Source: Selenomonas sp. (lineage in GTDB: Bacteria; Bacillota; Negativicutes; Selenomonadales; Selenomonadaceae). From it: a stretch of DNA of 64,000 bases. Positions 7,306 to 29,159 of the stretch are shown here, one piece after another (position 1 is the first letter of the stretch; every line of letters begins with the position of its first letter). The stretch is taken from the NCBI RefSeq assembly GCF_022771645.1, contig NZ_JALFCU010000080.1:26495-90494 (forward strand), in the 5' to 3' direction. The notes beneath the pieces are model-generated. The model saw only the letters and a list, made by a program, of their open reading frames with translations. It was not told the DNA's origin and searched no databases. Position numbers and translations under genes: made by a program.

Positions 7306-8115
7306 TTAGTCCGCATGCCGCTCTCTGCAGATGCCGCGCTCGGCGACGCGCAGGAAGCGCAGGAAATGCTCGATCTCTTCGCACGAGTCGACTTCCTGCT
7401 CGATGACGGCAATGGCCTGGGCGAGCGAGAGGCCGGAGCGGTAGAGGATCTTGTACGCCTGCTTGATGCGGCGGCGCGACTCGAGCGGGATGCCGGCGCG
7501 CGAGATGCCGACGCTGTTGAGGCCGACGGCTTTCGCCGGATGGCCGTCGACGATCGTGTACGGCACGACGTCCTGCGTGAGCTTCGACATGCCGCCGACC
7601 ATGGCATTGCGGCCGATCTTGACGAACTGGTGGACGCCCGCCATACCGCCGATGACGGCGCGGTCTTCGACGACGGCGTGGCCCGCGAGGCTCGCGAGGT
7701 TCGACATGATGACGTTGTTGCCGACGACGCAGTTGTGCGCGACGTGCGTCAGCGCCATGAGCAGGCAGTCGTTGCCGATGCGTGTCTCCTCACCTTCGCC
7801 CGTCGCACGGTGCACGGTCGCGCCTTCGCGGATCGTCGTGCGGTCGCCGATGAACGTGTAGCTCTTCTCGCCTTTGAACTTCAAATCCTGCGGCTCTTCG
7901 CCGATGGACGCGCCCTGGAAAATCTTGCAGTCGCGGCCGATCTGCGTCCAGCCCGTGATGACGACGTGCGGGCCGATCTTCGTCCCCTCGCCGATCTCAA
8001 CGTTCTCGCCGATGACGGAATACGGGCCGATCTCAACGTTTTTCGCGATGCGCGCGCCCGGAGCGACGACCGCCGTGTCGTGGATATATGCAAGCACTTT
8101 GTTTTCTGCGCTCAT
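7306..8115 (-). CDS. lpxA: Acyl-ACP--UDP-N-acetylglucosamine O-acyltransferase
   Basis: Hexapeptide-repeat protein MSAENKVLAYIHDTAVVAPGARIAKNVEIGPYSVIGENVEIG...HPAKAVGLNSVGISRAG with the LpxA C-terminal domain. Start trimmed to ATG 8115, 9 nt after AGGAG. Confidence 0.9.
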   Translation of the reverse strand: MSAENKVLAYIHDTAVVAPGARIAKNVEIGPYSVIGENVEIGEGTKIGPHVVITGWTQIGRDCKIFQGASIGEEPQDLKFKGEKSYTFIGDRTTIREGATVHRATGEGEETRIGNDCLLMALTHVAHNCVVGNNVIMSNLASLAGHAVVEDRAVIGGMAGVHQFVKIGRNAMVGGMSKLTQDVVPYTIVDGHPAKAVGLNSVGISRAGIPLESRRRIKQAYKILYRSGLSLAQAIAVIEQEVDSCEEIEHFLRFLRVAERGICRERHAD

Positions 8116-8321
8116 ATGTTCCAACTCCTAACTACCTATCGTGAGCCTGCGGCCATGCCGGAGGCGTTCTTTTTCTTTGCTCTGTCTTTCCCATATACTC
8201 CCCGATTGAACCTATTTCTTGGTACACGATTTGACGGCAAAATCAGGCGTTTTCCGAGTGGAACAAAGATTTTCTTCTCTATCCTGCAATATGTCAGCTG
8301 TTTTCGCGATTTCTCGCGGGA

Positions 8322-8762
8322 TTACATATCGTCCTGTTCTTTCAGGGCAAACTTGAAGTCCGCTGAGGCGACGAGCTGGTCCTTGACGTAGCCGTCGGCG
8401 TGCAGCACGCCGAAGTTGCCGCGCACGCGTACGATCTCGGCTTTCGTCACGAGCTGGTCGCCTGGGATGACGGGATGCTTGAACTTCACATGCTCCATGC
8501 CGCCGAACAGCGCGATCTTGCCGCGGTGCTCCTCGGGATACAGCATCGCGACGCCGCCGACCTGCGCCATGGCCTCAAGAATGAGGACGCCCGGCATGAT
8601 GGGATGGCCAGGGAAATGACCCTGAAACTGCGGCTCGATCATCGTGATGTTCTTGATGCCCGTCGCGGAATGGAACGGGTCGATCTCGAGGATGCGGTCG
8701 ACGAGCAGCATCGGCGGGCGATGCGGCAGGATCTTCATGATTTCATTGATGTCTAATTCCAT
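8322..8762 (-). CDS. fabZ: 3-hydroxyacyl-ACP dehydratase FabZ
   Basis: ILPHRPPMLLVDRI...FQGHFPGHPIMPGVLILEAMAQ is the canonical FabZ hot-dog motif. Confidence 0.9.
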   Translation of the reverse strand: MELDINEIMKILPHRPPMLLVDRILEIDPFHSATGIKNITMIEPQFQGHFPGHPIMPGVLILEAMAQVGGVAMLYPEEHRGKIALFGGMEHVKFKHPVIPGDQLVTKAEIVRVRGNFGVLHADGYVKDQLVASADFKFALKEQDDM

Positions 8763-8782
8763 GATGGTGTTCCTTCTTCCTT

Positions 8783-8846
8783 AAGACAGCCGTTAGCGCT
8801 TCAGCGCTTACGGATGTCTTAGCCATTTGCCGCAAGGCAAATAGCT
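8783..8846 (-). other. Two tandem intercistronic hairpins between lpxC and fabZ
   Basis: Plus strand shows AAGACAGCCGTTAGCGCttcaGCGCTTACGGATGTCTT (8783-8820) and AGCCATTTGCCgcaaGGCAAATAGCT (8821-8846). No T-run follows either. Confidence 0.5.
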
Positions 8847-8894
8847 TCCTTATTCCGTACGCGCACGGCGTTACGACCCAAGCACTTATTTTTT

Positions 8895-9761
8895 TTAACA
8901 GCCGCAGCCGTCTAAAATCTGTTTTGCGAGCGCCGTGTTCAGCGCGTGGCCGGAGGCCGCTGCGATGATATGGCCTCTTATGATGCCAGCGAGGCGCAGG
9001 TCGCCGATGACGTCGACGATCTTGTGGCGCACGAGCTCATCATCGAAGTGGAGCGGGTTCAGCCAGCCGTCGTCATTGTAGACGATGACGTTTTCGATGC
9101 TGCCGCCGAGGCCTAGCCCCATCTTGCGCAGCTGCTCGATCTCTTTCTCGTACGCGATGGTGCGTGCCGGGGCGATTTCTTTTTTGTAGAGCTCCGGCGT
9201 GATCTCGAAGTTCTCGTACTGGATGCCGATGAGGCGGTGCGGGTTCACGGACGTGAAGCTCACGCGGAAGCCGTCGTACGGCACAGCCATGACGAAGCGC
9301 TCGTGCTGGTCGTCGTCGATGCGGTAGACGCGGTCGATGACGATCTCTTTGCGCGGCGCGTCGAGCTCCTGGATGCCTGCGCGCTCGATGAGCTCAAAGA
9401 ACACGAGCGATGCGCCGTCGGCAACGGGAGGCTCCTCGGAATCGAGCCGCACCTCGCAGTTGTCGATGGAGAGCGCATGGAGCGCGCTCATGAGGTGCTC
9501 GATCGTGAAGAACTCGATGCCGTCCGCGCCAATCGTCGTCGCGCGAAGCGTCGACGTCACGCGGTCCGCCCGCGCTTCGACGCGCGGCTCGCCGTCCATG
9601 TCCGTGCGCACGAACACGATGCCCGTGTCCGCGGCCGCCGGCCGCAGTTCCATATGCACCTCGCGCCCCGAATGCAGCCCGACGCCAGAAAACGTGACGG
9701 CCTTTGCCAGCGTTGTCTGTTGGCTCAAAAAACGTCCCTCCCTCAATTCCGATTCATTCAT
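8895..9761 (-). CDS. lpxC: UDP-3-O-acyl-N-acetylglucosamine deacetylase
   Basis: TLAKAVTFSGVGLHSGREVHMELRPAAADTGIVFVRTD...HKIVDVIGDL matches LpxC. An alternative TTG start at 9728 follows GGAGGGA by 6 nt and may be the real start. Confidence 0.9.
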   Translation of the reverse strand: MNESELREGRFLSQQTTLAKAVTFSGVGLHSGREVHMELRPAAADTGIVFVRTDMDGEPRVEARADRVTSTLRATTIGADGIEFFTIEHLMSALHALSIDNCEVRLDSEEPPVADGASLVFFELIERAGIQELDAPRKEIVIDRVYRIDDDQHERFVMAVPYDGFRVSFTSVNPHRLIGIQYENFEITPELYKKEIAPARTIAYEKEIEQLRKMGLGLGGSIENVIVYNDDGWLNPLHFDDELVRHKIVDVIGDLRLAGIIRGHIIAAASGHALNTALAKQILDGCGC

Positions 9762-9780
9762 AGCTTTTTTATCATACTAC

Positions 9781-9819
9781 AAAAAGGGAAGCGCGGTCAA
9801 CCTGCGGCCCCGCTTCCCC
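9781..9819 (-). terminator. Rho-independent terminator after the HEPN-motif gene
   Basis: Minus strand has a GGGAAGCG..CGCTTCCC stem followed by TTTTTGTAG, 9 nt after the stop at 9828. Confidence 0.65.
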
Positions 9820-9827: not shown

Positions 9828-10925
9828 TCATCCGTCCGCGAGCGGATAATCGTAAAGCGGCTCGATGTCGCTGAGCGCGAGCGGATGGATGTGCGCCAGC
9901 GTGTTGCGCGCTTCGCGGAAACGCTCGAGGCTCTCGCGCTCGCGCTCGCTCATGCGGAAGCGTGACCGGTAAGAGTAAATCGTGCCGAGCTCGAGGTCGC
10001 GCCCGTCCTCGATTTTCTCGTGGTTGCCGTTGTAGATGGTCTCGACGGCCACGAGGCGCGCGGCTTCGTCCTGGTGACGCTCGAGGAACGCGATGCGCTG
10101 CGCCTCGAGATAGGGAAAGACCGTCTTGATCTGCGCTGTCCAGATGCGGCGCGCGACGTCGCCGGCGGGCGCCGGGAACGCGCTGCCGTCGCTGCGCGCC
10201 GTGTCCTGCAGGACGCGGGCGAGCGTCTCCTCCGGCGCGTGGTACAGGCTGTCCGCCGTACGCAGGAGCGCGGCGCCGAGCTCGACATCGCCGCCCGAGA
10301 CGCTCGTCGCGAGTTCGGCGAGGTACGGGCGCAGCCGCTCTTTCGCCGGGCTGCCGGAGAGCTGCGCGTTGCGGGCGCGGACGCTGTGGAAGAGGTGGAC
10401 GTCGTAGCGCGTGACGTCATCGTCATAGGAAAACGTGCGGACCGCCTTGCTGCGGGGCGGCGTGCCGTCCGCCATCTCGAACAGGCAGATGGCGCCCGCC
10501 CGCCCGCCGCACGCGCGCTGGTAATCCGAGAGGAAATCCAGCCACGCTTTGAGCTGCGCGCGCGTGACGCCCGTGAACCAGAACGTGCGGTTCGGCAGGG
10601 TCGTGTCCTCGAGCCCCGCGAGGAATTCCGCATAGTGGCGCCCGTGGCGATAGGCGCGCGCCAGGCTGCCCTTGCAGCATTTTTCCAAAAGGCAGGCGCC
10701 GATGTCTTCGACGTCGGCGGCGTCCACCATGACGATGAGCCGGTTCGGGTCGCCGCTGTCGATGCGGTCGCACAGGAAGCGGCGGAACGCCGCATGCCAC
10801 GGCAAGTGCTCCGGCACCTGGAGGACGACGGAGCGCTGGTCGAGGACGGTTTCCACGACCGCACGCGCAAAGCCGGCAGGCGACGAGACGTGCTGCCACC
10901 AGAGTTCTTCATCGGTGTATTCCAT
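9828..10925 (-). CDS. 365-aa protein with a C-terminal HEPN-like Rx4H motif; N-terminal half resembles a degenerate P-loop fold
   Basis: ERFREARNTLAHIHPL contains R-N-T-L-A-H (9891-9908), the R(N)xxxH HEPN RNase signature, in the last predicted helix. The N-terminus has strand-like SVVLQVPE / LIVMVDAAD / AICLFEM but no GKS/T. RBS GGAGG overlaps the stop of the upstream giant gene (12-nt gap). Confidence 0.55.
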   Translation of the reverse strand: MEYTDEELWWQHVSSPAGFARAVVETVLDQRSVVLQVPEHLPWHAAFRRFLCDRIDSGDPNRLIVMVDAADVEDIGACLLEKCCKGSLARAYRHGRHYAEFLAGLEDTTLPNRTFWFTGVTRAQLKAWLDFLSDYQRACGGRAGAICLFEMADGTPPRSKAVRTFSYDDDVTRYDVHLFHSVRARNAQLSGSPAKERLRPYLAELATSVSGGDVELGAALLRTADSLYHAPEETLARVLQDTARSDGSAFPAPAGDVARRIWTAQIKTVFPYLEAQRIAFLERHQDEAARLVAVETIYNGNHEKIEDGRDLELGTIYSYRSRFRMSERERESLERFREARNTLAHIHPLALSDIEPLYDYPLADG

Positions 10926-10937: not shown

Positions 10938-13900
10938 TCATTCCATGTAGTCTTCGAGCTCGTTCTCGACGACGTTCTTCCGCCCCATGAGGTGGAAGAA
11001 CGACTGGCGGCTGAAGACGTAGCTACCGTCGGCGCCCTTGCGCAGGACGTTGAGGTCGCAGAGCTCGTCCATGAAGGCCTGGAGCTTCTGCACGGTGAGC
11101 GCGCGGATCTGCACGACGTTGTACGCTTCGGCGGTCGCGTGGAGCTCGTCCGGACGGTAACCGCGGATGCCTTCGTTGTAGTAGAGGAACGCCAGCAGGA
11201 GCGCGATGATCATGTAGTAGTTGTCGTTGTCGAGGCCGAGCGTGATGCGGAACTTGTTGCGGACTTCCCATTTGAACTCCTCGTCGCCGAGGACGTCCAT
11301 GATGTGCTGCTCTTCGACGTAATAGATGGGCGCCTTGCCCTCCCCATAGTAATCGAGGCTTTCGCCGCACAGGGTGTCGACGAGCTTCTTGCAGTAGAGC
11401 TGGATGAGCCCCGGGAAATAGTTCGCCTGTGCGAGGATGAGAGCGATGTAGTTCTCCGGATTCTTCTTCGTGCGGCCGCCCGGGCGCTGCGCGAAGCGGA
11501 TGCCGAGGTAGTAGAGCGGCCACTCGAGGAGCTCGCGCGCCTCGCCGACGTGGAACGGCTTCACCGTGATGGACGAGAGGTGCGCGAGGCCGCTGTTGCT
11601 GCGCAGGGCATCGTCGCGGTAGAAGCGGACGATGTCGTGCAGGCCAGCGATGACGAATTTGAAATGGACGTTCTCGTCGCCTTGGAGCTCCTTGAGTGCA
11701 TTGAGGGGCTTGTAGCCCTCGTCCTTGCAGTGCTCGATGAAGATGTCGGCTTCGTCGAGCATGAGCAGGAAGTAGTAGATGCGGTTCGTCGGCTCGCGCA
11801 GGCGCGCGGAGATCCGATCGACAAGTTGCTGCCAGTCCCGCACCTCAAACGCCGTCTTGAAGAAGTGCTCTTCGTTGAGCTTCTTGCAGACGCGCTCCGC
11901 AGCCCCTTCGGTGTCCTGATCCTGGATATTGACGACGATCGCGCGGTTCACCGTGTTGCGGTCGACCTTCTGGTAGTTGATGTCGTTCGCCGCCATGCGG
12001 AGGATGGCGGACTTGCCGAGCTGGCGGCCGCCGTAGATGATGTTCGGCCCCTTCGGATCCTCGATGTCCGCGAGCTCTTTCTTGCGACCCATGAACATCT
12101 CGGGCGGCATGGAGTTGACGGCGTCCGGCACGTACGGCTGGTAGTAGCAGAACGGCATGATGAGCATCATGAGGCGGCGGTTCACGTCCGTCTCGTCGTA
12201 GTGGCGGAACAGGTAGTACGTGACGACGCGGTCGATGATGGCAAATGTCGTATTGAGGCAGGCTTTCTTGATCTTGCGCGCGTAGCGGCGGAGCGTCGCG
12301 ATCTTCAGCGCGTAGTCGAGGAAGACGATGGTCGGCTTGCTCGCGCCGCCGATCTTCGCGACGGTGTTGACGAGGCCCTCGTCCTTGTACTCGCCGAAGA
12401 GGCAGACGACGCGGAAGCTGTTGTCCCCGCCCTGCGCCTGCGAGCCGAACGCGGCGATCGGGTGGATGTAGCGGGACTTGCTGTGGTTCAGGGGATCCTT
12501 GAGCTTCACGTTGAACGCGAACTTCGTGCGGCCCGTGACGGCGAGCCTGTCCTCCTCGCTCTCGACGTCCAGCTCCTCGACGGATGCGACGTCCCAGCCG
12601 AGCGCGTGCAGGAGGTTCTTCATGCGCTCGCCGTCCATCGGGTTCTTCAGCCAGTTTTCCTTGATTTCCTGGCGGCCGCGCTCGACTTTCGGCGAGCCCT
12701 TGCCCGAGCGGCTCTCGAGCAGCCGCTTGAACGAGCGGCTGTTGTTGATGACGGTGTAGTTGTCTTCGTATTCGCGCAGGTAGTTCGCGAGGTGGTCGGC
12801 TTCGCCTTTCGGCAGCTCGATGCCGCCCGTGTCGATGTCGCCCTCGGCCCAGCGGCGGAGGTCGTCCTGCGCGACGGTGTAGTTCTGGTCGTCGATGGCG
12901 TCCTGGATGGAAAGGAGGAACTTCGCGTGGCGCTCGTCGAGGTCGCCTGCGCGGAGGCGCTCGACCTCTTCCTGCAGGCGCTCGCCATGCGCGGTCGCCG
13001 CCTGCTCGATCTCGCGGCGGAACGCGGCGTCCGCGCGGCGGAACGCGCCGTAGTTGCGCGTTGCCTCGGCATAGCTGCGGCAGTCTTCCGCGAGGCGCAG
13101 GTAGTCTTCTTTCTTGATTTCGCCATCGCCGCGCTCATCCACGTCGCCGACGGCATCCTCCAGCGCACCGCAGCACTGCTTATACTCCAGGTAGTTCTTG
13201 AATTTCTCGAACGCTTCGTCGAGCCCTTCGCCCGCGCGCCGGCTGTCTTCCTCGATGATGTGCCGCTCCTTGGCGAGCGGCGACGTGCCCGTGAGGATCT
13301 GCAGGCGCGCGTCGATGAGCCCGAGCGTCTGATAATCGTCCGCCGCCTCCGAGCGCGGATCGAGGAGCGCGTCAAGGCGCGCCGAAAGCGCAGCGGCGGC
13401 GTCCGCCGGGCGCTCCGCCGCCGCATAGGCGCGCAGCGCAGCGAGATATTTCTGGCGGGGCGCGCGGATATGCCAGAACGCACGGAAGTCCGGCAGGTAG
13501 TCCTGATCCAGCAGGAGCTCCGTCGCGGACAGGAAGCCGTCGTAGAACATGCGCGGACGGCTGGCCTCCGGCGCGCCGTCCATGCGGAAGGCAATCTCTG
13601 CGAGCGCCCTGCGCAGGACGCGCAGGCCGGCTTCCAGGACGGGGTCGCCCTCGGCTGCGAGCGCGGCATCCGCCTCGTCGAGCGCTTCATGCACCTGCTT
13701 GCGGAGAGCCTCCAGCGCCGCGTCGCGGTCTTCCTGCGGCGCGATGGTATCCGCTGCGGTCAGCTCGAGCCAGCGGCGCAGGATGTCCGTGCTCTTCGTG
13801 AGGTCGCTCAGGAGGCCTTGGCCGAGCGCGCCCTTGATGCGCTCCGTCTTCTTGTCCACCTTGCTCGACGTGCGGTCCCAGGCGGCATTGATGTATTCCT

Positions 13901-16628
13901 TGAGCTTTTCCGGGTCGATGTTCCACTCGCCGGGCGCCGCCTTGTCGTCGCAGAAGAACGTCGTGAGGAATTCGCTGACGCCTTCGGCCTGCGCCGTGTC
14001 ATCCTCCATGACGGCCGCAAGGGACATCGCGAGGTCGTCGTTTTTCCCGTAGACGTCCAGCATCGTGTGGTAGACGTGGAGGTTCAGCCGGTTCTGCGTT
14101 GGATGGAGGACGTTCTTGTGGTAGTCGAGCTCCGCCTCTTTGCGCAGGCTGGCGAGCTGCTGCTCGCGCTGCTGCTGGCGCGGGTAACGGTACGCGGCGT
14201 AAAAGTCCGCGCCTTTCTCATACGTTTCCTTGAACGATTTCAACTTGTGGATGAGGTTCTTGGCGCTCTGGCAGCCTTCTTCGCCGAGGTTCCGCTTCAC
14301 GATGTCACGGAAGAACGTATCCATCATATAGTCGTGCGGCAAGTCGTTCGAGAAGAACGCGCGCAGCGCGGCGGCGGCGAGGAGGTACTCGTCGAGGACG
14401 CTCTGCGCGCCCTCGTAAACCTCCATGAGCTTCGACGAGGCATGCACGGGATGCACGGCGGGATCGTCGAGCGCATACGACAGGCGCAGGCGCGCCTCTT
14501 CCCACGCCTCATCGAGATGGCTGCAGTAGCCGAGGTACGCAGCCGCGCAGTCGTCCCGGCCGGCGCAGAGGAACGTGACGACGTCCTGCATCACGTCGTC
14601 GTCCGCCGCCTCGCGTCCGGACGTGCCTGCCGGGGCCGCGCCCGATGCTTCTTCCGCTGGGGCACGGCCGCCTGCGTCTGCCGCATGTCCCGCCGGCGCT
14701 ACCGTCTCCTGCTCCGCCGGGAGCTCTGCAGCTGGCGCGTCCGCTTCCTGTGCCGTCGGCGGCTCTGCAGGGGGCGCGTCCGGTTCCTGTGCCGTCGGCG
14801 CCCCTTCGGCTGGCGCATCCGCCGCCTCCTCCGTCAGTGCCTCTGCAGGGGGCGCGCCCGCCTCGTGCTCCGCCGGCTCGGGCACGGGCGCGGCGTCCGT
14901 CGTCAGCGCCCCTTCGGCCGGCTCCTCCGCTTCTTCGCCCGCCGAGGCCCCCGTCGATGCCCCGTCTTCCGTTCCGTCTCCCGGGATCCCCGCAGCAGGC
15001 CCCGGTTCTGGCACCGGTTCCTCGTCATCGTCCTCCGCGTCCTCCGCGTCATCTGCCTCCCCTGCCCCATCCGCAGCGAACCAATCCGGCGCGGGCGTCC
15101 ACGCGGCGTCGTACATCTGGTTTTCCGGCAGGAGGTAGAAATACGTCGGCACCTCGCGCAACGCAGGGAAAGCGTCGTGCACGAACGCCACGAGATGGTC
15201 AAGCTGCTCGCGCTGCATGCCGGCGATCGTGAAATCGAGCGTCTTCCCCTCCACCACGAGCTCCGCGAACGCGTCCCGGAACGCTGCGGCCTCTTCGCCG
15301 TCATGCTGTTCGCCGGCAAACCAGAACAGCATCAGGTGGCGGCGGTTTTTGCCGTCGTTCAGTCCCATCGCCATGGCCGCGAACGCGTTGTAGATCCGGC
15401 GGCGGGCATCCGTCGATTTCGGATAGCCCATGGTCTCCTGGCAACGCACGTGCAGGCGGCTCATGGCGAGGCGCGCCGCCGCATACGACGCCTTATCCGC
15501 GATCGGCTCGCCGCCGTCATCCTCTGGCTGCACTTCGAGGCCGAGCCGGTTGCACACCTTCTCGAGCGACAGCGCATGCTTGAGCTTCGGCGTCGCCACG
15601 CAGAACGCGCCGCAGCCTGCGAGCTGGAATTCGCGCAGGTATCCCATGTGGATCAGCTGGTACTTCACCGCCTCGTAGTCCCCGCTCTTCCAGCGATGCT
15701 GCCGCCACCGCAGCAGCGTGTCCTCGCAAAGGTAGTCCACGGCTGGCAGCACCGACAAGAGTGCCCCTGCGCACATGCGCACGTCCTTCACCATCTTGCG
15801 CCAATCGGACAGGAACGCTTTCGCGCTCTCCTTCGCCTGGGATTTCGGCGTCAGCGGCTGCACCGTCAGCTCGCCATAGTCGAACGACGCCGGCAGCAGC
15901 GTCCCTGCCGCCTGCAGCTTCGCCCAGAGCGCCTCGTCTTCCGCAGATGTGACAGGCAACGGTGCCGGCTCGCCCGGCATCCCGTCCGGCTCCTCCGGCG
16001 CAGGAGGCGTCCCTAGATCTGCGGGAGCATCCGGTTCGTCCGTCCCGTCCTCCGGAGCGTCTGCGACATGCATCGTGCCGCCGGCGAACGCATCGCCGAG
16101 CAGGCCGATGGAAAACCGCCCCGTGGCGGCCAGCTGCATCATCTTCAGGCTCCGTTCGCTGCCCTGCGCGCGCCACGCCTCCGCGAAATCGAGATACGGC
16201 CGCAGCGCCTCCTCCGCAGGCGCCCCGTCCTGCGCGAGGAGCGCGCGCAAAGCCTCCTGCACCTGTGCGAGCTCCGCACGCACGTCGTCGCGCTCCGTCT
16301 CGAGCTGCAGGAACCAGCGCGCCGCCTCCGCCTGCTCCTGCGCGGCCGCTGCGGCCTCCATCCACTGCGTCATGCCGCCGAGCGCTGCAAAATCCTGCGG
16401 CTCCTGCGGCGCATGCGCGCCGGCCGCCACGGCCCGCACGCGCGCCCGCTGCTCCTTCACAGCCGCGAGCGCCTGCTGCACCTCGTCGCAGAGCTCGTCC
16501 GCGACGAACGCGTTGTCGTCCGCGAGCGCGTGCGCGAGCGTTTCCACGGATGCGGCAAGCGCCGCATAATCCTTTCGCATGGAAGCGGCCAGCGCCCGGG
16601 CCGCCTCGGCTTCCTGTCGGAAATCCAT
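10938..16628 (-). CDS. Giant (1,896-aa) multidomain protein with a C-terminal P-loop (Arch_ATPase/ORC-like) ATPase and winged-helix-like tail
   Basis: Walker A is FMGRKKELADIEDPKGPNIIYGGRQLGKSAIL (GGRQLGKS at 12009-12032). Walker B is YYFLLMLDEADIF (11745-11768). The N-terminal roughly 1,300 aa are coiled-coil/helical with two acidic Pro/Ala-rich disordered stretches. Start trimmed to the ATG at 16628 (MDFRQEAEAA), 8 nt after GGAAGGAG. Confidence 0.8.
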   Translation of the reverse strand: MDFRQEAEAARALAASMRKDYAALAASVETLAHALADDNAFVADELCDEVQQALAAVKEQRARVRAVAAGAHAPQEPQDFAALGGMTQWMEAAAAAQEQAEAARWFLQLETERDDVRAELAQVQEALRALLAQDGAPAEEALRPYLDFAEAWRAQGSERSLKMMQLAATGRFSIGLLGDAFAGGTMHVADAPEDGTDEPDAPADLGTPPAPEEPDGMPGEPAPLPVTSAEDEALWAKLQAAGTLLPASFDYGELTVQPLTPKSQAKESAKAFLSDWRKMVKDVRMCAGALLSVLPAVDYLCEDTLLRWRQHRWKSGDYEAVKYQLIHMGYLREFQLAGCGAFCVATPKLKHALSLEKVCNRLGLEVQPEDDGGEPIADKASYAAARLAMSRLHVRCQETMGYPKSTDARRRIYNAFAAMAMGLNDGKNRRHLMLFWFAGEQHDGEEAAAFRDAFAELVVEGKTLDFTIAGMQREQLDHLVAFVHDAFPALREVPTYFYLLPENQMYDAAWTPAPDWFAADGAGEADDAEDAEDDDEEPVPEPGPAAGIPGDGTEDGASTGASAGEEAEEPAEGALTTDAAPVPEPAEHEAGAPPAEALTEEAADAPAEGAPTAQEPDAPPAEPPTAQEADAPAAELPAEQETVAPAGHAADAGGRAPAEEASGAAPAGTSGREAADDDVMQDVVTFLCAGRDDCAAAYLGYCSHLDEAWEEARLRLSYALDDPAVHPVHASSKLMEVYEGAQSVLDEYLLAAAALRAFFSNDLPHDYMMDTFFRDIVKRNLGEEGCQSAKNLIHKLKSFKETYEKGADFYAAYRYPRQQQREQQLASLRKEAELDYHKNVLHPTQNRLNLHVYHTMLDVYGKNDDLAMSLAAVMEDDTAQAEGVSEFLTTFFCDDKAAPGEWNIDPEKLKEYINAAWDRTSSKVDKKTERIKGALGQGLLSDLTKSTDILRRWLELTAADTIAPQEDRDAALEALRKQVHEALDEADAALAAEGDPVLEAGLRVLRRALAEIAFRMDGAPEASRPRMFYDGFLSATELLLDQDYLPDFRAFWHIRAPRQKYLAALRAYAAAERPADAAAALSARLDALLDPRSEAADDYQTLGLIDARLQILTGTSPLAKERHIIEEDSRRAGEGLDEAFEKFKNYLEYKQCCGALEDAVGDVDERGDGEIKKEDYLRLAEDCRSYAEATRNYGAFRRADAAFRREIEQAATAHGERLQEEVERLRAGDLDERHAKFLLSIQDAIDDQNYTVAQDDLRRWAEGDIDTGGIELPKGEADHLANYLREYEDNYTVINNSRSFKRLLESRSGKGSPKVERGRQEIKENWLKNPMDGERMKNLLHALGWDVASVEELDVESEEDRLAVTGRTKFAFNVKLKDPLNHSKSRYIHPIAAFGSQAQGGDNSFRVVCLFGEYKDEGLVNTVAKIGGASKPTIVFLDYALKIATLRRYARKIKKACLNTTFAIIDRVVTYYLFRHYDETDVNRRLMMLIMPFCYYQPYVPDAVNSMPPEMFMGRKKELADIEDPKGPNIIYGGRQLGKSAILRMAANDINYQKVDRNTVNRAIVVNIQDQDTEGAAERVCKKLNEEHFFKTAFEVRDWQQLVDRISARLREPTNRIYYFLLMLDEADIFIEHCKDEGYKPLNALKELQGDENVHFKFVIAGLHDIVRFYRDDALRSNSGLAHLSSITVKPFHVGEARELLEWPLYYLGIRFAQRPGGRTKKNPENYIALILAQANYFPGLIQLYCKKLVDTLCGESLDYYGEGKAPIYYVEEQHIMDVLGDEEFKWEVRNKFRITLGLDNDNYYMIIALLLAFLYYNEGIRGYRPDELHATAEAYNVVQIRALTVQKLQAFMDELCDLNVLRKGADGSYVFSRQSFFHLMGRKNVVENELEDYME
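14724..14879 (-). repeat. In-frame 39-bp tandem repeat (about 4 units, the last two degenerate) inside the giant gene
   Basis: Plus-strand units are ctctgcagctggcgcgtccgcttcctgtgccgtcggcgg and ctctgcagggggcgcgtccggttcctgtgccgtcggcgc. They encode the 13-aa periodic PTAQE(A/P)DAP(A/P)AE linker. Confidence 0.6.
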
Positions 16629-16700
16629 CGTATCCGCTCCTTCCATTTGCTTTCTCTTCTTATTTCTCCATCTCATCGCGATTTCCTGCCGTGCACACGC

Positions 16701-16726
16701 AAAAAAGCCGCGCTTGCCAGCGCGGC
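16701..16726 (-). terminator. Rho-independent terminator after the radical-SAM gene
   Basis: Minus strand has GCCGCGCTggcaAGCGCGGC followed by TTTTTTGCG, 18 nt after the stop at 16744. Confidence 0.7.
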
Positions 16727-17961: not shown

Positions 17962-18966
17962 TTACGCACCAATTTCCCCTTCCGGCAGATTCGCCAGCGC
18001 TCCCAACAATTCTTCATTGCTGACGGCGTACGTGCCGAGCTTTGCGACGACGACGCCGGCGGCGAGGTTCGCGAGGAAGGCGGCGGCTTTCGAGCGCAGG
18101 CCGCCCGCGAGGCCCATGGCGAGCACGGCGATGACCGTGTCGCCCGCGCCGGAGACGTCGAAGACTTCCTGCGCGCGCGTCGGGACGTGCAGCGCGTCGT
18201 CCTCGCGCACGAGCGAGAGGCCGGCCTCGGAGCGCGTGACCATCATATTGCGGATCTTGTACTTGCGCATGACGTAGTGCGCCGCGCGCTCGACGGCGTC
18301 GTCCTTGTTGCGGATGGGCTCGATGAGGACTTCGTTGATCTCCTTGAGGTTCGGCGTCAGGTAGTCGGCGTGCGCGTATTTCGTCCAGTTCGGTCCTTTC
18401 GGGTCGATGAGCACGGGGACGCCGTGCGCGTGCGCTTCGCGGATGACGTACTGGCAGAACGACTCCGTGCACGTGCCCTTGTCATAGTCGGAAATGACGA
18501 CGGCGTCGAGGCTCTCGCTGAGCTTCTGCGCGATATAGTTCTGCAGGCGCGCGATGTAGACGACGTCCGGCGGCGTCGTCTCTTCGAAATCGAGGCGCAG
18601 CATCTGCTGATGGCCGCCGATGACGCGCAGCTTCGTCGTCGTCGGGCGGTCGGTGTGGACGAGCCCGCGGTAGTCGATGCCGCGCGCCGTGAGTTTCTCC
18701 TCCAGGCTCTGGCAATGGTAGTCGTCGCCGACGTAGCCCGCGAGCGTCGTTTTGCAGCCGAGCCGCGCGAGGTTGTGCGCGACGTTCGCCGCGCCGCCGA
18801 GCGTTTCTTTCTGCGACGTGACGTGCGTGATCGGCACGGGCGCTTCCGGCGAGATGCGGTTGACCTCGCCGTAATAATATTTGTCGAGCATGACGTCGCC
18901 GACGACGAGGACGTTGCATTTCGCCGCGCGCTCCGCGACGAACGTGCTGAGTTCTTGTTTGTCCAT
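17962..18966 (-). CDS. rfaE1: D-glycero-beta-D-manno-heptose-7-phosphate kinase (RfaE domain I, PfkB family)
   Basis: MDKQELSTFVAERAAKCNVLVVGDVMLDKYYYGEVNRISPEAPVPI...DVSGAGDTVIAVLA matches the HldE/RfaE kinase domain. Start trimmed from the track (19233) to the ATG at 18966, after GGAGGAAGAA. Confidence 0.85.
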   Translation of the reverse strand: MDKQELSTFVAERAAKCNVLVVGDVMLDKYYYGEVNRISPEAPVPITHVTSQKETLGGAANVAHNLARLGCKTTLAGYVGDDYHCQSLEEKLTARGIDYRGLVHTDRPTTTKLRVIGGHQQMLRLDFEETTPPDVVYIARLQNYIAQKLSESLDAVVISDYDKGTCTESFCQYVIREAHAHGVPVLIDPKGPNWTKYAHADYLTPNLKEINEVLIEPIRNKDDAVERAAHYVMRKYKIRNMMVTRSEAGLSLVREDDALHVPTRAQEVFDVSGAGDTVIAVLAMGLAGGLRSKAAAFLANLAAGVVVAKLGTYAVSNEELLGALANLPEGEIGA

Positions 18967-19006: not shown

Positions 19007-20797
19007 TTATTCCCTCGGCTTCCAGCCGTGCCGTGCGTAGCAGGCGATCTTGTCTTTGTACATGGCGCGGTCGGCTTCGGCTTGGAGGTCTTTGTAGCTC
19101 GTGTGGCCGCTGGCTGGGCGGGCGAGGCCGAAGGCGACGGAGACGTTTTCGAGTTCGAGCTTTTGCTGGATGCTCTCGGCGAAGCCTTGGGCGGCATCGT
19201 GCGGGAGCTCGGTCGTGAACGCGGCGAATTCATCGCCGCCGATGCGGTAGACGTGGTCTTTGCCGAGGGCGGCGGCGAGCTCGCGCGCAGCGGTGGTCAG
19301 GAGGCGGTCGCCTTCGGCGTGGCCGAGGGTGTCGTTCGCGCGCTTCAGGCCGTTGACGTCGGCCATGATGAAAATCGTGCCCTGCGGCGCGATGCCGTTC
19401 CCGTATTCGCTCGCGAGGAGGTAGGCGTTGTGGCTGCGGACGTCCGTCATTTCGTCGTAGAGGCTGAGTTTTTCCAGGCGGGTCGCTTCGGCCTGCTCGT
19501 AGTGGATGCAGCTGTGGACGTCGTTGAAGCCGTTGTAGATGGCGCGCACCATGTGGGCGCACGTATCGTAGCCGCAGGCGGCGCAGTCGATGTGGCGCGA
19601 GGCTTCGTCGTATTTGTGCAGGCTGTCGTAAATGGCGTCTTCTTCTTCGCGCGACGGCTGCCAGTCCTGGCATTGCGCCGAGCGGTCGCGGTAGGTGCGC
19701 TGGTAGTCGCGCGGGTTCAGCCCCTCGAAGCGTTCGTTGAGGAGCGCGAGGCGTTCGGCGGGCGGCACGCTTTTGTTCCACGGGCCGGCGTCGTCGCGGA
19801 CTTCGCGCTGGTGCATGCGGTTCAGCAGCGTGTAGTAGGCCTGGTCGTGGTCGTTGCAGCCGGGCGCGTTCGCCGTGCCTTCGAGGCAGCCGTCCTGGCA
19901 GTTGACGATGTCGACGATGGAAAACGGCAGCGCGCCGCGCAGCAGGCCGTCCGCGTTGCGGTCGAGCCAGCGGTACGCGTAGCGCTTGCCGGAGACGCTC
20001 CGCACATAGATGTCGTCGCCGAGGAACCAGCGGAGGTTCGTCGCGAGGCCGTCGGGCGCGGGATACGCGAGGCCGAGGCCGTAGCCCGTGTCTTCCTCGC
20101 TCGTCGCATCGCCGAGGCCGTGCGCCTCGAGGTATTTCATGAGGGAACGCAGCGTGATGTTGTAGGAGATGGCCTCGTAGCGGCCGTCCCTTTGCTTTTC
20201 GAGCGTCTTGCCGATGCACGGGCCGATGTAGGCGAGGCGGTCGGTGATGTAGAGGCGCGTGCGCGCGTAGATGGCCATGCACTGCGTCGGGCTCTGCACG
20301 GGCAGCAGGTGGCCGAGGAGCTCGGGGTGGAAATGCTCGATGTACGAAACGATGACGGGGCAGCGCGACGAGAGGAAGCCCATGCGCGGCCGCTCCGCGA
20401 GGTAGCGGAGCGTCGCCCACGTGCAGATGTCCGCGCCGAACGCGACGGGCAGCAGCCGCCGCGCGCCGAGCACGCGCAGCGTGCCGAGGATGCGGCGGTA
20501 CGACGCGGGGAACGACGACTCGATGGCGGGCGAAAGGAGCACGGAGATGGGCACGCCGTCCGCGAGGTCGCGGAAAAAGCGGTCCGTGTCGTCCGTGTAG
20601 CTCCGCGCGTCGTGCGCGCAGACGGTGAAGCATGCGCCGCAGGCCGTGCAGCGCAGAGGGTCGACGGCGATCTGCGTGCGCCCGCCCTCGCGCTGCGAGA
20701 TGCACGCGCCCATGGACGAGCAAACGCCGACGCATTTGTTGCAACCGATGCAGTTTTCGTTCGTGTAAATGAGGCCTTCCGCTTGCATGGCGCTCAC
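19007..20797 (-). CDS. Sensory [FeFe]-hydrogenase-like protein (2x4Fe-4S ferredoxin + H-cluster domain + Cx2Cx4Cx16C) fused to a GGDEF diguanylate cyclase
   Basis: Ferredoxin motifs are CIGCNKCVGVC and CTACGACFTVC. H-cluster-like motifs are SSRCP (C146), GPCIGKTLE (C194) and NCQDGCLEG (C300/C304). CAACGYDTC-x16-C spans C405-C430 (19508-19585). The C-terminal domain has YDEMTDV...RIGGDEF (19226-19240). Confidence 0.8.
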   Translation of the reverse strand: MSAMQAEGLIYTNENCIGCNKCVGVCSSMGACISQREGGRTQIAVDPLRCTACGACFTVCAHDARSYTDDTDRFFRDLADGVPISVLLSPAIESSFPASYRRILGTLRVLGARRLLPVAFGADICTWATLRYLAERPRMGFLSSRCPVIVSYIEHFHPELLGHLLPVQSPTQCMAIYARTRLYITDRLAYIGPCIGKTLEKQRDGRYEAISYNITLRSLMKYLEAHGLGDATSEEDTGYGLGLAYPAPDGLATNLRWFLGDDIYVRSVSGKRYAYRWLDRNADGLLRGALPFSIVDIVNCQDGCLEGTANAPGCNDHDQAYYTLLNRMHQREVRDDAGPWNKSVPPAERLALLNERFEGLNPRDYQRTYRDRSAQCQDWQPSREEEDAIYDSLHKYDEASRHIDCAACGYDTCAHMVRAIYNGFNDVHSCIHYEQAEATRLEKLSLYDEMTDVRSHNAYLLASEYGNGIAPQGTIFIMADVNGLKRANDTLGHAEGDRLLTTAARELAAALGKDHVYRIGGDEFAAFTTELPHDAAQGFAESIQQKLELENVSVAFGLARPASGHTSYKDLQAEADRAMYKDKIACYARHGWKPRE

Positions 20798-20815: not shown

Positions 20816-22261
20816 TCAGTTTGCCGCCTCCGGCAGCACGATGGGCTTCTTCTCGAGGTCTTTCGTGATCCACGGGAAATGCGCCGAGAGGTATTTGCCG
20901 ATGGCTTCGCCGATCATGCGCTTGCCCGCGTAGTCCGGGTGCAGGCCGTCCGTCGTGTATTTCGTCGCCATCCAGCCCGAGGCATCCTCGACCGTGCGGC
21001 CGACGTCGACGGCGTACGTCTGCTCCAGGATCCAGTGGTTGATGTAGGCGCGATGCACCTGCCAGTCCGCCGGCGGCGTCTCGATCTGGCCGTAGCGCTC
21101 GATGAGGCCGGGGTTGATCGGCGTGACGGTCGCGAACACGGGGATGATGCCGTACGCGTCGCATTTGTCGCGGATGGCGATGAGGTGCTCGACGGTCTCC
21201 GAGCCCATCGTCGTACCGCGGTAGTCGTTGACGCCGCCCATGATGACGAGCACGCGCGGGGAGAAAGGCAGCACGTCCGTCTCGAAGCGCTCGAGCATGG
21301 CCTGCGTCGTGTTGCCGCTGTAGCCGAGGTTCTTCACGGGCACGACGGAGTACGTCTCCCAATCGTAGAGGAGGTAGCCCGGGGGCGTCGTCATCGCGCC
21401 GCCGCCGTGCGTGATGCTGTCGCCGAGCGCCGCGACGGGCGTCGGCGTGGTCACATCGAACTCCGAGAACGGCGACCAGTCGGAAATCGGCCAGCCGCTC
21501 GCGTCGACGGCGCGCACGCGCCACGCGTAGCGGCCCGGCACGGTGTAGCCGCCCTCTTCGTAGTAGTCGTACTCGCCCGCCTGGAGCGTGCGGATGAGCT
21601 GCTTGCCCGACGGCTTCTCGCGGTAAACCTCGACGACGTGCTGCTTCGCGCCCGCCGTCGGCACCCACGAGAACACGGGGTAGAGCGGCGCGTAGTCCAT
21701 CTTTTCGAACTCCGTCGTCGGCAGCGGGGCCGTCGGGTTCACCTCGCCCGACGTGAGCGGCGCGGGCGTCGTGGATTTCGCGAGCGCGCGGCCGCTGTAG
21801 TCGAGCGGGCAGCATTTCCAGTAGTACGATTCCGCCGCCTTGCCGTACGGCACGAGGTCGAGCTCGATGCCGTTCGTGTAGCATTGGTCCGTCGACCAGA
21901 CGACGTTCTCCGCCTTGTCCTCTGCGCCCTTCAGTAGCACGACTTGATAGCGCACGGCGCTCGGCGTCACGGGCCACGTCAGGCGGACTTTTTTCATCTG
22001 CACTTCGGCTGCGGGCGCAGGCGCGTCCGCCGTTTTTTTCTCTTCCACTTTCTCCACCTTCGCATCTTTTTTCTTGTGGGAAAGATCGCTGTGCTGCACC
22101 TCGATGATGCGGATGTCCTGCGCAAGCGTCGCGGGCGCGTCGTCCGAGGGCGGGTCGACCTCGATGACGCGTGGCGGCGCGGCAAAAACAGCCTGAGGAA
22201 CAGCAAAGAACACGCCGGCCGCCAATGCGGCGGAAGCGGCGAGGAATGTACGGGATTTCAT
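20816..22261 (-). CDS. Secreted SGNH/GDSL-family hydrolase with N-terminal beta-rich domains
   Basis: Signal peptide is MKSRTFLAASAALAAGVFFAVPQAVFA. The GDSL block is VAALGDSITHGGG, with later GGVNDY and DGLHPD blocks. Confidence 0.7.
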   Translation of the reverse strand: MKSRTFLAASAALAAGVFFAVPQAVFAAPPRVIEVDPPSDDAPATLAQDIRIIEVQHSDLSHKKKDAKVEKVEEKKTADAPAPAAEVQMKKVRLTWPVTPSAVRYQVVLLKGAEDKAENVVWSTDQCYTNGIELDLVPYGKAAESYYWKCCPLDYSGRALAKSTTPAPLTSGEVNPTAPLPTTEFEKMDYAPLYPVFSWVPTAGAKQHVVEVYREKPSGKQLIRTLQAGEYDYYEEGGYTVPGRYAWRVRAVDASGWPISDWSPFSEFDVTTPTPVAALGDSITHGGGAMTTPPGYLLYDWETYSVVPVKNLGYSGNTTQAMLERFETDVLPFSPRVLVIMGGVNDYRGTTMGSETVEHLIAIRDKCDAYGIIPVFATVTPINPGLIERYGQIETPPADWQVHRAYINHWILEQTYAVDVGRTVEDASGWMATKYTTDGLHPDYAGKRMIGEAIGKYLSAHFPWITKDLEKKPIVLPEAAN

Positions 22262-22324
22262 ATTCTAGGATTCTCTTCTTTCTCTGTCAAAGATACACCC
22301 TTTTATTATACCGCAAAAATGCGC

Positions 22325-27423: not shown

Positions 27424-28596
27424 TTACGAATGTTTCATGTGTTTTCGGAAGCCCTTGTCCGTCGCCACATGCCGCCCCATTGCGGCGATCCGCCCGCCCA
27501 TGCACGCGCGGCAGTCGGCCGGCGTATCAGCGACGCAGATTTTCCCCGGATACAGCGCGTATTTGCGGCGGTAGTCGCCCTCGGTGACGTTCGGCATGAC
27601 GACGTTCGCGCCGGAGGCGAGGACGAGCTCGCGGCCTCTAGGCATCATCGTCTCCATCGCCGTCGTCGCGGGGATGTTCGCCTCGGGGAGCAGCAGCCGG
27701 AGGAGCGCGACCATGCGGCGCGTGAGATGCCAGTCGCCGGGCGCTGCCTTCCCGAGCGGCGTGTCGCCGTTCGGGATGAGCGGGCCGATGCCGATCATGT
27801 CGGCGTCGATTTCTTGATAGAATAAAATGTCGCGCGCGAGCATCTCGACCGTCTGCCCCGGCAGGCCGATGAGCGAGCCCGTGCCGACCTCATAGCCAAG
27901 GTCTTTGAGGTCTCGCAGGCAGCGCACGCGGTTCTCGTAGCTCATGCCGGGGTCGAGGCGTTCGTAGAGCTCCGCATTCGTCGTCTCGATGCGCAGGAGG
28001 TAGCGGTCGGCGCCCGCCGCCCGCCAGAGCGCGTAGTCCTCGCGCGGCCGCTCGCCGACGGAGAGCGTGATGGCGAGGTCCAGCGCATGGATGCGTCGGA
28101 CGATCTCCGCGAGGCGCTCCGCCGTGAAATGCGCGTCCTCGCCCGACTGCAGCACGACTGTGCGGTAGCCGTAGCCCTTCGCCTTTTCCGCGAGCGTCAC
28201 GATGTCGTCTGCCGTCAGGCGATAGCGCTCGATCTTGCCGTTGTCCCGCCGCAGACCGCAGTACATGCAGTCCTGGCGGCAGATATTCGAGAACTCGATA
28301 AGGCCGCGCAGGTGGACGCCGTCGCCGACGAACTGCTTGCGGACGGCGTCGGCGGCCGCGCAAAGAAGCTCCTCGCAGGCATCGTCTGCGAGGAGCTTTG
28401 TGATTTCGCTGAAGGTGAGGTGGTGCGTTTCGGCGGCCTGTTGGATCAGGGCACTCTCTTCGATGGGAAAATCCTGCGAATTGCTATGACCTACCTTCGA
28501 CACACCCCCCACCGCTGACGCGGTCCGCCCCCCCACGGAGAGGGGGGCTGTGTACACGGAAGGCTTCGTTCCTTTCGAAAGTTCATGCGTTGACAT
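27424..28596 (-). CDS. hydE: [FeFe]-hydrogenase H-cluster radical-SAM maturase HydE
   Basis: LRGLIEFSNICRQDCMYCGLRRDN...VVLQSGED...RYLLRIETTN...GSLIGLPGQT...IGIGPLIPNGDTPL matches the HydE pattern. The start is uncertain; I used the ATG at 28596, the first ATG downstream of the upstream gene's stop. Confidence 0.7.
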   Translation of the reverse strand: MSTHELSKGTKPSVYTAPLSVGGRTASAVGGVSKVGHSNSQDFPIEESALIQQAAETHHLTFSEITKLLADDACEELLCAAADAVRKQFVGDGVHLRGLIEFSNICRQDCMYCGLRRDNGKIERYRLTADDIVTLAEKAKGYGYRTVVLQSGEDAHFTAERLAEIVRRIHALDLAITLSVGERPREDYALWRAAGADRYLLRIETTNAELYERLDPGMSYENRVRCLRDLKDLGYEVGTGSLIGLPGQTVEMLARDILFYQEIDADMIGIGPLIPNGDTPLGKAAPGDWHLTRRMVALLRLLLPEANIPATTAMETMMPRGRELVLASGANVVMPNVTEGDYRRKYALYPGKICVADTPADCRACMGGRIAAMGRHVATDKGFRKHMKHS

Positions 28597-28601
28597 TACG
28601 T

Positions 28602-29159
28602 TTACTCTCCGTCCGCGATTTTTGCTTCCGTCCGCGCGAGGAGCTTGTCCGCGTGCTGGTCGGCATATTTGAGGATCGCGCGGAAGAAGCAGCCGTCGAC
28701 GTCTTTTTCCGAGAGATCGTCCAATTTGATCGTCGTGGGCTCGGTCTCCGTGTGGATGGCCGTCCACGTACCATCGAGGTCGTCATGCTGCTCGATCGTC
28801 ACCGTGCCGGCCGCGCGGTCGATGCGCAGGTACTCCGCCGCGCCGACAAGGTCGTCGTAGCCGTCGAGCGGCTCCATCTTCCAGCGGCGCTTCGCAACGA
28901 CGTCCTCAATCTGCACGTCGTCGTACGTCTTGAGCGTCGGCACGATCAGCACGTTCTCGTCAGCCTTGCCGTCGACGATGTCGTAGCACATCTGCCGCTT
29001 GTTGAAATAATAATTCTGCCGCGCCGTCGACTGCACCCATTCAAATACGTGTGATGACACGGCCGGCGCGTCTGCGGATGCCGGCGCGGTCCAAAAGAGC
29101 GAGCAGGCAATCATCCCCGCCGCCATCGTGCCGAGCAAACGCAACGTAAAATTTTTCAT
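28602..29159 (-). CDS. Secreted hypothetical protein
   Basis: Signal peptide is MKNFTLRLLGTMAAGMIACSLFWTAPASA/DA. I recognise no motif in the rest. Confidence 0.55.
   Translation of the reverse strand: MKNFTLRLLGTMAAGMIACSLFWTAPASADAPAVSSHVFEWVQSTARQNYYFNKRQMCYDIVDGKADENVLIVPTLKTYDDVQIEDVVAKRRWKMEPLDGYDDLVGAAEYLRIDRAAGTVTIEQHDDLDGTWTAIHTETEPTTIKLDDLSEKDVDGCFFRAILKYADQHADKLLARTEAKIADGE

Follow-up and report, generated by a model that had tools for sequence, protein, structure and literature searches.

The stretch of DNA analyzed here (the window, 64,000 nucleotides; contig NZ_JALFCU010000080.1, positions 26,495 to 90,494) is chromosomal and belongs to a rumen Selenomonadaceae, a Negativicute, named Selenomonas sp. 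On its minus strand, at 19007..20797, lies a gene predicted to encode a sensory [FeFe]-hydrogenase-type module joined to a GGDEF diguanylate cyclase, the enzyme domain that makes cyclic diguanylate (c-di-GMP). The translation, the G+C content at third codon positions (GC3), the Pfam domains and the lengths of the homologs all identify it as a sensor-diguanylate cyclase gene. That it is a real gene is confirmed: GC3 is 0.90 against 0.46 at second codon positions, in a window of 65% G+C. An overlapping plus-strand open reading frame (ORF) of 1018 aa was ruled out, because its translation is low-complexity Ala/Arg/Val and GC3 favors the minus strand. Read from the GTG at 20797, the gene comprises 596 codons and ends with a stop codon at 19007-19009; residues are numbered in this 596-aa form unless stated otherwise. 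The start is nevertheless likely to be the ATG at 20788, three codons in, as the closest homologs measure 593 aa, the length that this start gives. The nearest genomic relatives are the metagenome-assembled genome RUG043 (85% identity) and Selenomonas bovis DSM 23594 (64%; locus L005).

The protein is made, in this order, of two ferredoxin-type four-cysteine motifs, a hydrogenase H-domain, a Cx2Cx4Cx16C motif, a linker of fixed length (19 residues) and a GGDEF domain. Pfam returned four domains in the same order: Fer4_7 at residues 15-64 (E 2.4e-6), Fe_hyd_lg_C at 85-307 (E 7e-24), FeS (PF04060) at 403-431 (E 4.1e-5) and GGDEF at 446-583 (E 9e-19; 68 bits). NCBIfam concurs, with the generic GGDEF model above its cut-off and hydrogenase-subfamily scores far under the cut-offs of catalytic groups A and B. 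An AlphaFold2 (AF2) model built with 106 homologs as input reached a pLDDT of 90.8 and a pTM of 0.77, and its top 50 Foldseek matches in the PDB are all [FeFe]-hydrogenases, over about 430-450 aligned columns and with E down to 2.7e-19. The locus had previously been described from its letters and ORFs, without database searches; all the sequence features listed in that sequence-only reading were found where it had placed them.

Conservation was assessed in two sets, one of 198 relatives and one of 138 diverse sequences, the latter made of 137 cluster representatives and of TamHydS, the putative sensory hydrogenase of Thermoanaerobacter mathranii. All 16 cluster cysteines are conserved at nearly 100% in both. 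The N-terminal ferredoxin-like domain (20606..20761, minus strand; Fer4_7) carries two CxxCxxCxxxC motifs, which we located in the translation at C16/19/22/26 and C50/53/56/60, as had been claimed, and is predicted to bind two [4Fe-4S] clusters. Its eight cysteines are kept in 195-197 of the 198 relatives and in 137-138 of the 138 diverse sequences. The H-domain (Fe_hyd_lg_C, 19877..20545, minus strand) contains the three expected motifs, all assigned by alignment to TmHydA and CbA5H: L1, SSR145C146P, at 20357-20371; L2, G192PC194IGK197TLE200, at 20198-20224; and L3, NC300QDGC304, at 19886-19903, each on the minus strand. In a profile-free alignment to solved hydrogenases, SSRCP corresponds to TSCCP, GPCIGKTLE to MPC(I/T)AKK(Y/F)E and IVNCQDGCLEG to (I/V)MAC..GC.GG. 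This motif-by-motif agreement puts the four H-cluster ligands (C146, C194, C300 and C304) in register with C300, C355, C499 and C503. The misalignment of these cysteines, in which the sequence-only reading had seen a possible flaw of its own proposal, was thus not found against either TmHydA or CbA5H, and each ligand is conserved in 197-198 of the 198 relatives.

Four Cys ligands alone do not separate an H-cluster from Nar1-like proteins. One has then to consider that the H-domain binds only its [4Fe-4S] cluster, as in Nar1 or apo-HydA, and that the protein is a redox, O2 or NO sensor, reporting the state of the ferredoxin/redox pool or oxidant damage to its clusters to the GGDEF domain, with H2 uninvolved. 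The surroundings of the [2Fe] site argue against this alternative, since the second-sphere residues of the [2Fe] cyanides are all present: K197 (Lys358; positions 231, 299, 353, 358, 361 and 497 are given in CpI numbering), E200 (Glu361) and P90 (Pro231, of the APA motif). These three residues are kept in more than 90% of the family as well as in the window protein, which is difficult to account for if no [2Fe] site exists. Lys358 in particular is found in 191 of the 198 relatives and in 126 of the 138 diverse sequences; its absence from the other 12 of the 138 counts in favor of a sensor lacking the [2Fe] subcluster.

Other positions of the active site depart from those of catalytic enzymes. 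The proton-relay Cys299 of TSCCP is replaced by Arg145, as the sequence-only reading had seen, Met353 by Gly192 and Met497 by Val298; with these substitutions, the protein does not qualify as a prototypical catalytic hydrogenase. Position 299 reads Pro (118), Thr (28), Ser (27), Arg (18) or Ala (7) in the 198 relatives, and Pro (101), Ala (9), Ser (9) or Thr (8), never Arg, in the diverse set; Cys is absent from this position in all of the approximately 335 relatives aligned. Position 353 is Gly or Ser in the 198 relatives and mostly Ser, also Gly and Thr, in the 138 diverse sequences, while position 497 is mostly Leu in both sets. The lack of Cys299 together with a small residue at 353 is the published signature of groups C and D (PMC8163306, PMC10055695). 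In group C as defined by HydDB, position 299 is Ala in 43% of sequences, Cys in 17%, Pro in 10% and Ser in 10%, and position 353 is Gly in 51%, Ser in 32% and Thr in 17% (PMC10055695). The family values at both positions fit this published variation, although Arg299 is not among the residues given (PMC10055695). The sensor module ends with the accessory-cluster motif Cx2Cx4Cx16C (C405, C408, C413 and C430; 19508..19585, minus strand; FeS PF04060), whose spacing is exact and which is kept in 197 of the 198 relatives and in 138/138 diverse sequences. The sequence-only reading had named it as a hallmark of sensory-type enzymes, and this is borne out: putative sensory hydrogenases of both the M2e type (group D) and the M2f type (group C) share it (PMC8163306). 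Overall, the first 430 residues are predicted to hold two N-terminal [4Fe-4S] clusters, an H-cluster site devoid of the proton-relay Cys and a C-terminal [4Fe-4S] cluster.

In the AF2 model a helix begins at the last cluster Cys and leads into the GGDEF domain (19466..19507, minus strand; helix 428-441 in the 593-aa numbering). The distance from this Cys to the first invariant Asp of the GGDEF domain is exactly 19 residues in 106/106 homologs, in which Glu434 and Asp445 of the linker are invariant and Leu438 and Ser442 nearly so. In relatives fused to kinases, HisKA begins at the equivalent point. The GGDEF domain itself (residues 446-583; 19049..19462, minus strand) scores 63 bits against TIGR00254 (cut-off 37), and its RIGGDEF motif, reported earlier as intact, is so in the translation (residues 518-524; 19226-19246, minus strand). 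The domain can be aligned end to end with the active cyclases 4URS (Thermotoga maritima), 3IGN and DosC (4ZVE), and its metal- and GTP-binding positions, which read ADVNGLKRANDTLGHAEGD ... YKDK, match all three. In 106 GGDEF-fused homologs sharing 40-84% identity, Arg-x-Gly-Gly-Asp-Glu and the metal-binding Asp are invariant, as are Lys, Asn-Asp, Gly-His, Gly-Asp and the C-terminal Lys. The loss of key substrate-binding residues, which would have spoken against a functional cyclase in the sequence-only reading, is not seen at these positions, and the domain looks catalytically competent from its sequence.

The canonical I-site consists of RxxD, with Asp five residues before GG. The window protein reads LGKD (511-514) at this position, the I-site is therefore absent, and Arg occupies the first I-site position in no homolog of the family. 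The earlier statement that RxxD is lacking thus stands, even though the stretch on which it was based was slightly off. An alternative explanation for this part of the protein is a genuine sensor joined to a GGDEF domain without cyclase function, which would be a degenerate scaffold, a GTP-binding or a protein-interaction domain, the protein then signaling by binding a partner. The tail of the GGDEF domain reads K-x3-Y and not K-x3-R, so that the second Arg with which PleD-type cyclases bind phosphate is presumably absent, which counts against a working cyclase; the equivalent of PleD Arg446 is not conserved, a mild caveat. After the conserved Lys, the tail is unlike PleD and WspR and has no GRN motif. 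In addition, the Pfam score is moderate (68 bits), and some GGDEF-EAL relatives score weakly for GGDEF (45 bits). Degenerate GGDEF domains, on the other hand, normally lose the very residues (RxGGDE, Mg-binding Asp, guanine-reading Asn and Asp, Lys) that are invariant in the 106 homologs. Together with the end-to-end alignment to active cyclases, and with the absence of RxxD, which makes the role of an I-site c-di-GMP receptor impossible, this renders a non-cyclase GGDEF domain improbable in our opinion.

The sequence-only reading had called this architecture unusual, which does not hold at the level of genes. When 5.8 billion proteins were searched, over 100 full-length homologs with the same Pfam pair came out, their sources including Selenomonas, Atopobiaceae/Coriobacteriales, Oscillospiraceae, Lachnospiraceae and Ruminococcaceae, with Clostridia and Coriobacteriia represented besides Selenomonadaceae; several are already annotated "diguanylate cyclase" by NCBI. 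An exhaustive phmmer search of 1.84 billion cluster representatives found 518 clusters of the sensor family, defined at 50% identity, with E <= 1e-30. Among the best 150 of these 518 representatives, 37 continue into GGDEF, many of them also with EAL, 11 being about 600 aa long, 15 about 860 aa and 11 about 1000-1190 aa. Pfam confirmed GGDEF-only, GGDEF-EAL, GGDEF-EAL-PAS and GGDEF-GGDEF-EAL forms, as well as stand-alone modules of 434-445 aa and hybrid or PAS histidine kinases. Relatives in Lachnospiraceae, with 40-46% identity over the sensor module, are fused to methyl-accepting chemotaxis protein (MCP) domains or to HisKA-HATPase-REC(-Hpt), and the same Fer4 + Fe_hyd_lg_C + FeS module is reported to serve as a regulatory domain in sigma-54 activators of Clostridiales (PMC6615313). 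Kinase- and MCP-fused relatives show Pro299/Ser353/Leu497 and GGDEF-only clades mostly Gly353; in a rough neighbor-joining tree of the sensor modules, which served for this purpose only and not for dating or rooting, output types cluster. The occurrence of one module before MCP, kinase, GGDEF-EAL, PAS-kinase and sigma-54 outputs is the behavior expected of a portable sensor domain, of which c-di-GMP enzymes are one regular output. The gap thus lies in the description and not in the genes, this fusion being abundant in databases and apparently undescribed in the literature.

This diversity of MCP, kinase and transcription-factor outputs also bears on the possibility that the protein is a metabolic hydrogenase, evolving or consuming H2, with a GGDEF domain that merely regulates it. 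The complete H-domain fold and the ferredoxin-like entry clusters would suit such an enzyme, and TmHydS (a putative sensory hydrogenase of Thermotoga maritima) and TamHydS both retain low catalytic activity (PMC8163306). Nevertheless, no relative has the proton-relay Cys, other residues stand in for Met353 and Met497, neither partner subunits nor a hydrogenase operon accompany the gene and, without an I-site, c-di-GMP has no known means to regulate the enzyme. We consider a metabolic role very improbable.

We think it somewhat probable that the gene encodes a soluble one-component signaling enzyme in which a sensory [FeFe]-hydrogenase module sets the synthesis of c-di-GMP. In this enzyme, a conformational change would pass by way of the C-terminal cluster domain, then the linker helix, and alter the way in which the two GGDEF domains of a dimer meet, which would set the rate of c-di-GMP synthesis. 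The relay from the C-terminal cluster domain to what would be a dimeric output is, we infer, a rigid helix. In TamHydS, H2 induces a change in secondary structure while the C-terminal cluster remains oxidized (PMC13104023), which makes a conformational relay likelier than a redox relay. For lack of an I-site, product feedback would not cap the output. The host being a motile, H2-consuming rumen selenomonad, the choice between motility and attachment would be the most plausible target of the signal. We likewise infer the cofactor content, H2 responsiveness, dimerization, direction of regulation and physiological output of the protein. In its fullest form, the proposal is that of a one-protein H2-to-c-di-GMP transducer, in which an H-cluster rendered non-catalytic by Arg at the relay position binds H2 and a rigid helix, anchored on the C-terminal [4Fe-4S] cluster, switches a feedback-free cyclase, so that local H2 sets motility or attachment in rumen and gut anaerobes; this we offer tentatively, rating its chances at rather less than even. 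The link from H2 (or redox) to c-di-GMP drawn in the sequence-only reading is thus upheld as far as the direct fusion of a sensor module to GGDEF is concerned; its H2 side is unproven, and the Arg at position 299 is specific to one clade.

Several observations besides the tail of the GGDEF domain weigh against H2 sensing by such an enzyme. TmHydS and TamHydS are called only "putative" sensors, and H2 sensing has been shown experimentally for no family member. Arg299 is confined to the Selenomonad clade (18/198 relatives, 0/137 other representatives), and such a bulky cation, Arg145 in the window protein, could hinder [2Fe] insertion or H2 access beside the [2Fe] site. In a sister Selenomonad subclade (L001-L004, P0005 and P0006), 67-71% identical to the window protein, Lys358 is replaced by Arg, Ser or Gly and Glu361 by Asp, while all cysteines and the GGDEF motif are retained; the protein therefore apparently works without the canonical cyanide-binding Lys. 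Hydrogenase neighbors were found at none of the loci examined, Selenomonad or Clostridial, and neighbors conserved outside Selenomonadaceae are equally lacking, the Clostridial loci having unrelated ones. Finally, HydF, HydG and a catalytic hydrogenase structural gene are missing among the scanned genes of the window.

Most of these points are also arguments for a sensor that binds only [4Fe-4S] clusters: the Arg next to the [2Fe] site, unique to its clade, the subclade without Lys358 that keeps its cysteines and its GGDEF domain, and the missing hydrogenase, HydF and HydG genes. Against it, in addition to the second-sphere residues, the window encodes HydE, a radical-SAM H-cluster maturase (27424..28767, minus strand; NCBIfam TIGR03956, 373 bits against a cut-off of 254.6), and an active H-cluster is present in both of the relatives with this module type that have been characterized (PMC8163306, PMC10055695). 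The hydE gene lies 6.6 kb from the sensor-cyclase gene and is solitary, without adjacent HydF, HydG or hydrogenase structural genes. As the family match starts at ORF residue 108, its true start is probably near 28460. Taken as a HydE from its family score, it points to machinery for [2Fe]-subcluster biosynthesis in this genome. In view of the clade-specific Arg and of the loss of Lys358 in the sister subclade, a redox sensor without [2Fe] therefore stays a live alternative, which we judge unlikely though worth keeping in mind beside the H-cluster-based sensor that we favor.

Some relatives within this part of the family show further peculiarities. The matches in subclade members L001-L004 lie at about 8001-9788 of their loci, and P0006, a cluster representative, has a Trp at the Cys300 ligand position. 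P0054, a protein of 481 aa from a 3.9-kb metagenome contig, associates a Selenomonad sensor (67% identical over residues 1-355; Arg299 and Ser358 present) with an AraC-type helix-turn-helix domain, without a C-terminal Cx2Cx4Cx16C. This protein may be a true transcription-factor variant or else a chimera produced during assembly.

The neighbors of the sensor-cyclase gene encode a GDSL hydrolase, ThiD, a PfkB kinase and a radical-SAM-like protein. The GDSL/SGNH hydrolase gene (20816..22261, minus strand; Pfam Lipase_GDSL_2) ends 28 nt before the ATG and is probably cotranscribed with the sensor-cyclase gene. Its product has a signal peptide, which marks it as secreted, and an N-terminal region of 275 residues without a Pfam match. 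A candidate sigma-70-like promoter (TTGACA-17-TAGAAT, 11/12 consensus matches; 22262..22290, minus strand) stands just upstream of it, and a hairpin followed by a T-run that resembles an intrinsic terminator by consensus (16707..16726, minus strand), the first such site on this strand downstream of the sensor-cyclase gene, comes after the radical-SAM-like gene. These pattern matches suggest an operon of the GDSL, sensor-cyclase, PfkB kinase and radical-SAM-like genes. The ThiD-GDSL-target order is syntenic in 8/8 Selenomonadaceae loci (L001-L008), and in Selenomonadaceae only. Given this restriction and the unrelated Clostridial neighbors, we drew no functional inference from the GDSL hydrolase; a link such as envelope or polysaccharide modification under c-di-GMP control would be a guess. 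The PfkB-family kinase gene just downstream (17962-18966, minus strand) starts at the ATG at 18966, preceded by a GGAGGA ribosome-binding site, and not at the ORF start at 19233; it is not syntenic in related loci, and the N-terminus of its product, VLVVGDVMLDKYYYGEVNRIS, resembles heptose-7-phosphate kinases (HldE domain I).

Lipid A genes, an Rnf operon and a two-component system lie elsewhere in the window, together with a gene for a second GGDEF protein. The second diguanylate cyclase, with a canonical GGDEF (49457-51040, minus strand; TIGR00254, 142 bits), points to a wider c-di-GMP network in this organism; an Rfam scan of the window found neither c-di-GMP riboswitches nor other RNAs. 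In the Rnf operon (53123-58295, minus strand), the scanned genes rnfC, rnfD, rnfE, rnfA and rnfB match NCBIfam models, and a further ORF (55238-55795) occupies the rnfG position. Rnf fits a ferredoxin-based anaerobic energy metabolism, a redox pool that the N-terminal clusters of the sensor could contact. Two adjacent ORFs, 10938-16676 (minus strand, 1912 aa) and 9828-10925 (minus strand, 365 aa), have good coding statistics and no match in Pfam, NCBIfam or PADLOC. The 1912-aa protein is rich in Ala, Glu and Asp and has acidic stretches of low complexity, with Walker A/B-like GRQLGKS and LLMLDEAD near its C-terminus, and may be an uncharacterized giant NTPase. Lastly, positions 1-6061 have a lower G+C content (48-49% over 1-4000 vs about 65% elsewhere) and hold LicD and a DUF4411 gene paired with an M78/IrrE-like peptidase gene, a pair with weak PADLOC RmrA/CapP-like matches, followed by a protein with AAA-ATPase_like and PDDEXK_9 domains. 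This region looks like an acquired island, possibly related to defense or toxin-antitoxin systems.

The fusion bears on a disputed question, namely whether group C and D [FeFe]-hydrogenases sense H2 and how they transfer the signal. TmHydS and TamHydS end in PAS or in nothing, and therefore offer no output to measure; recent work speaks against signal transfer by a redox relay via the C-terminal cluster (PMC13104023). With a cyclase naturally fused to the module, there is an in-built enzymatic readout, the conversion of GTP into c-di-GMP under H2 vs Ar, by which the sensing hypothesis and the roles of the linker and of the C-terminal cluster become directly testable. If the proposal of an H2-to-c-di-GMP transducer is true, a sensory [FeFe]-hydrogenase would for the first time have a direct enzymatic readout, and a "diguanylate cyclase-linked" [FeFe] subgroup that has no name as yet would be defined. 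The Arg299 clade further represents an unstudied active-site variant. The fusion implies no new fold and no new principle, since two known modules are recombined. Sensor-cyclases are common in Selenomonadaceae, Lachnospiraceae, Oscillospiraceae and Coriobacteriia of the rumen and gut. Interspecies H2 transfer governs methane output in ruminants (PMC6776011), and these proteins would tie it to motility and attachment under the control of c-di-GMP.

Among the closest known systems, TamHydS (group D, M2e) is the one whose sequence was aligned, taken from the supplement of PMC6984386. In this comparison with a Thermoanaerobacter HydS, which the sequence-only reading had proposed, the two proteins are collinear over residues 10-440 (BLASTP, E 6e-17, 22% identity), and the alignment columns reproduce the published A299, S353 and L497 of TamHydS, which validates them. 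TamHydS has the same order of two [4Fe-4S] sites, H-domain and Cx2Cx4Cx16C (PMC8163306), and neither protein has Cys299. Position 497 is aliphatic in both (Leu in TamHydS, Val in the window protein), whereas position 299 is Ala in TamHydS and Arg here, and position 353 Ser in TamHydS and Gly here. TamHydS ends after the cluster motif, without an output domain, where the window protein continues into GGDEF. Furthermore, TamHydS adjoins a bifurcating hydrogenase operon, whereas our gene is neither in nor next to a group A hydrogenase operon, contrary to a family tendency that is not a strict requirement.

TmHydS (group C, M2f) has, by its published description, the same three cluster-binding regions (PMC10055695, PMC8163306). 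Like the window protein, it has Gly in place of Met353, no proton-relay Cys and an output after the C-terminal cluster; the two differ at positions 299 (Ala in TmHydS, Arg here) and 497 (Ser in TmHydS, Val here), and in that TmHydS has PAS where the window protein has GGDEF. Pfam detects no PAS domain after the C-terminal cluster, GGDEF coming directly next, which places the protein outside M2f/HydS strictly defined. The label "HydS-type" given in the sequence-only reading is right for the sensory-type module and does not apply in the strict TmHydS sense, in view of the lack of PAS and of the 22% identity to TamHydS. From its sequence, the window protein is best described as a direct fusion of GGDEF to an [FeFe]-hydrogenase module of the M2e/M2f ("putative sensory") type.

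HydDB distinguishes kinase-linked (C1), chemotactic, MCP-linked (C2) and phosphatase-linked (C3) [FeFe]-hydrogenases and names no cyclase-linked [FeFe] class (PMC5037454). The relatives fused directly to HisKA-HATPase-REC(-Hpt) or to MCP domains follow the logic of the C1 and C2 names (PMC5037454); the output of the window protein is, in contrast, c-di-GMP synthesis. The same idea, H2 sensing leading to c-di-GMP, underlies the [NiFe] group 2c of HydDB, "diguanylate cyclase-linked (putative)" (PMC5037454), although this group belongs to a hydrogenase superfamily unrelated to [FeFe] and its link is also putative. DosC, a globin-GGDEF protein, similarly places a cofactor-binding sensor before a GGDEF domain, which aligns with ours (4ZVE); its sensor is a heme globin for O2, whereas that of the window protein is a four-cluster hydrogenase-like module presumed to sense H2 or redox. 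In reviews and recent primary papers, descriptions are confined to group C proteins with PAS and group D proteins without an output, and a full-text literature search, whose reach did not extend to Greening 2016 ISME, Calusinska 2010 and Poudel 2016, found no description of an H-domain-GGDEF fusion. The sensor module and the output domain are thus each known, and what is new is their combination, apparently undescribed: judged by its predicted domains, the protein is a variant in which the "putative sensory" [FeFe]-hydrogenase module known from groups C and D is given a c-di-GMP output.

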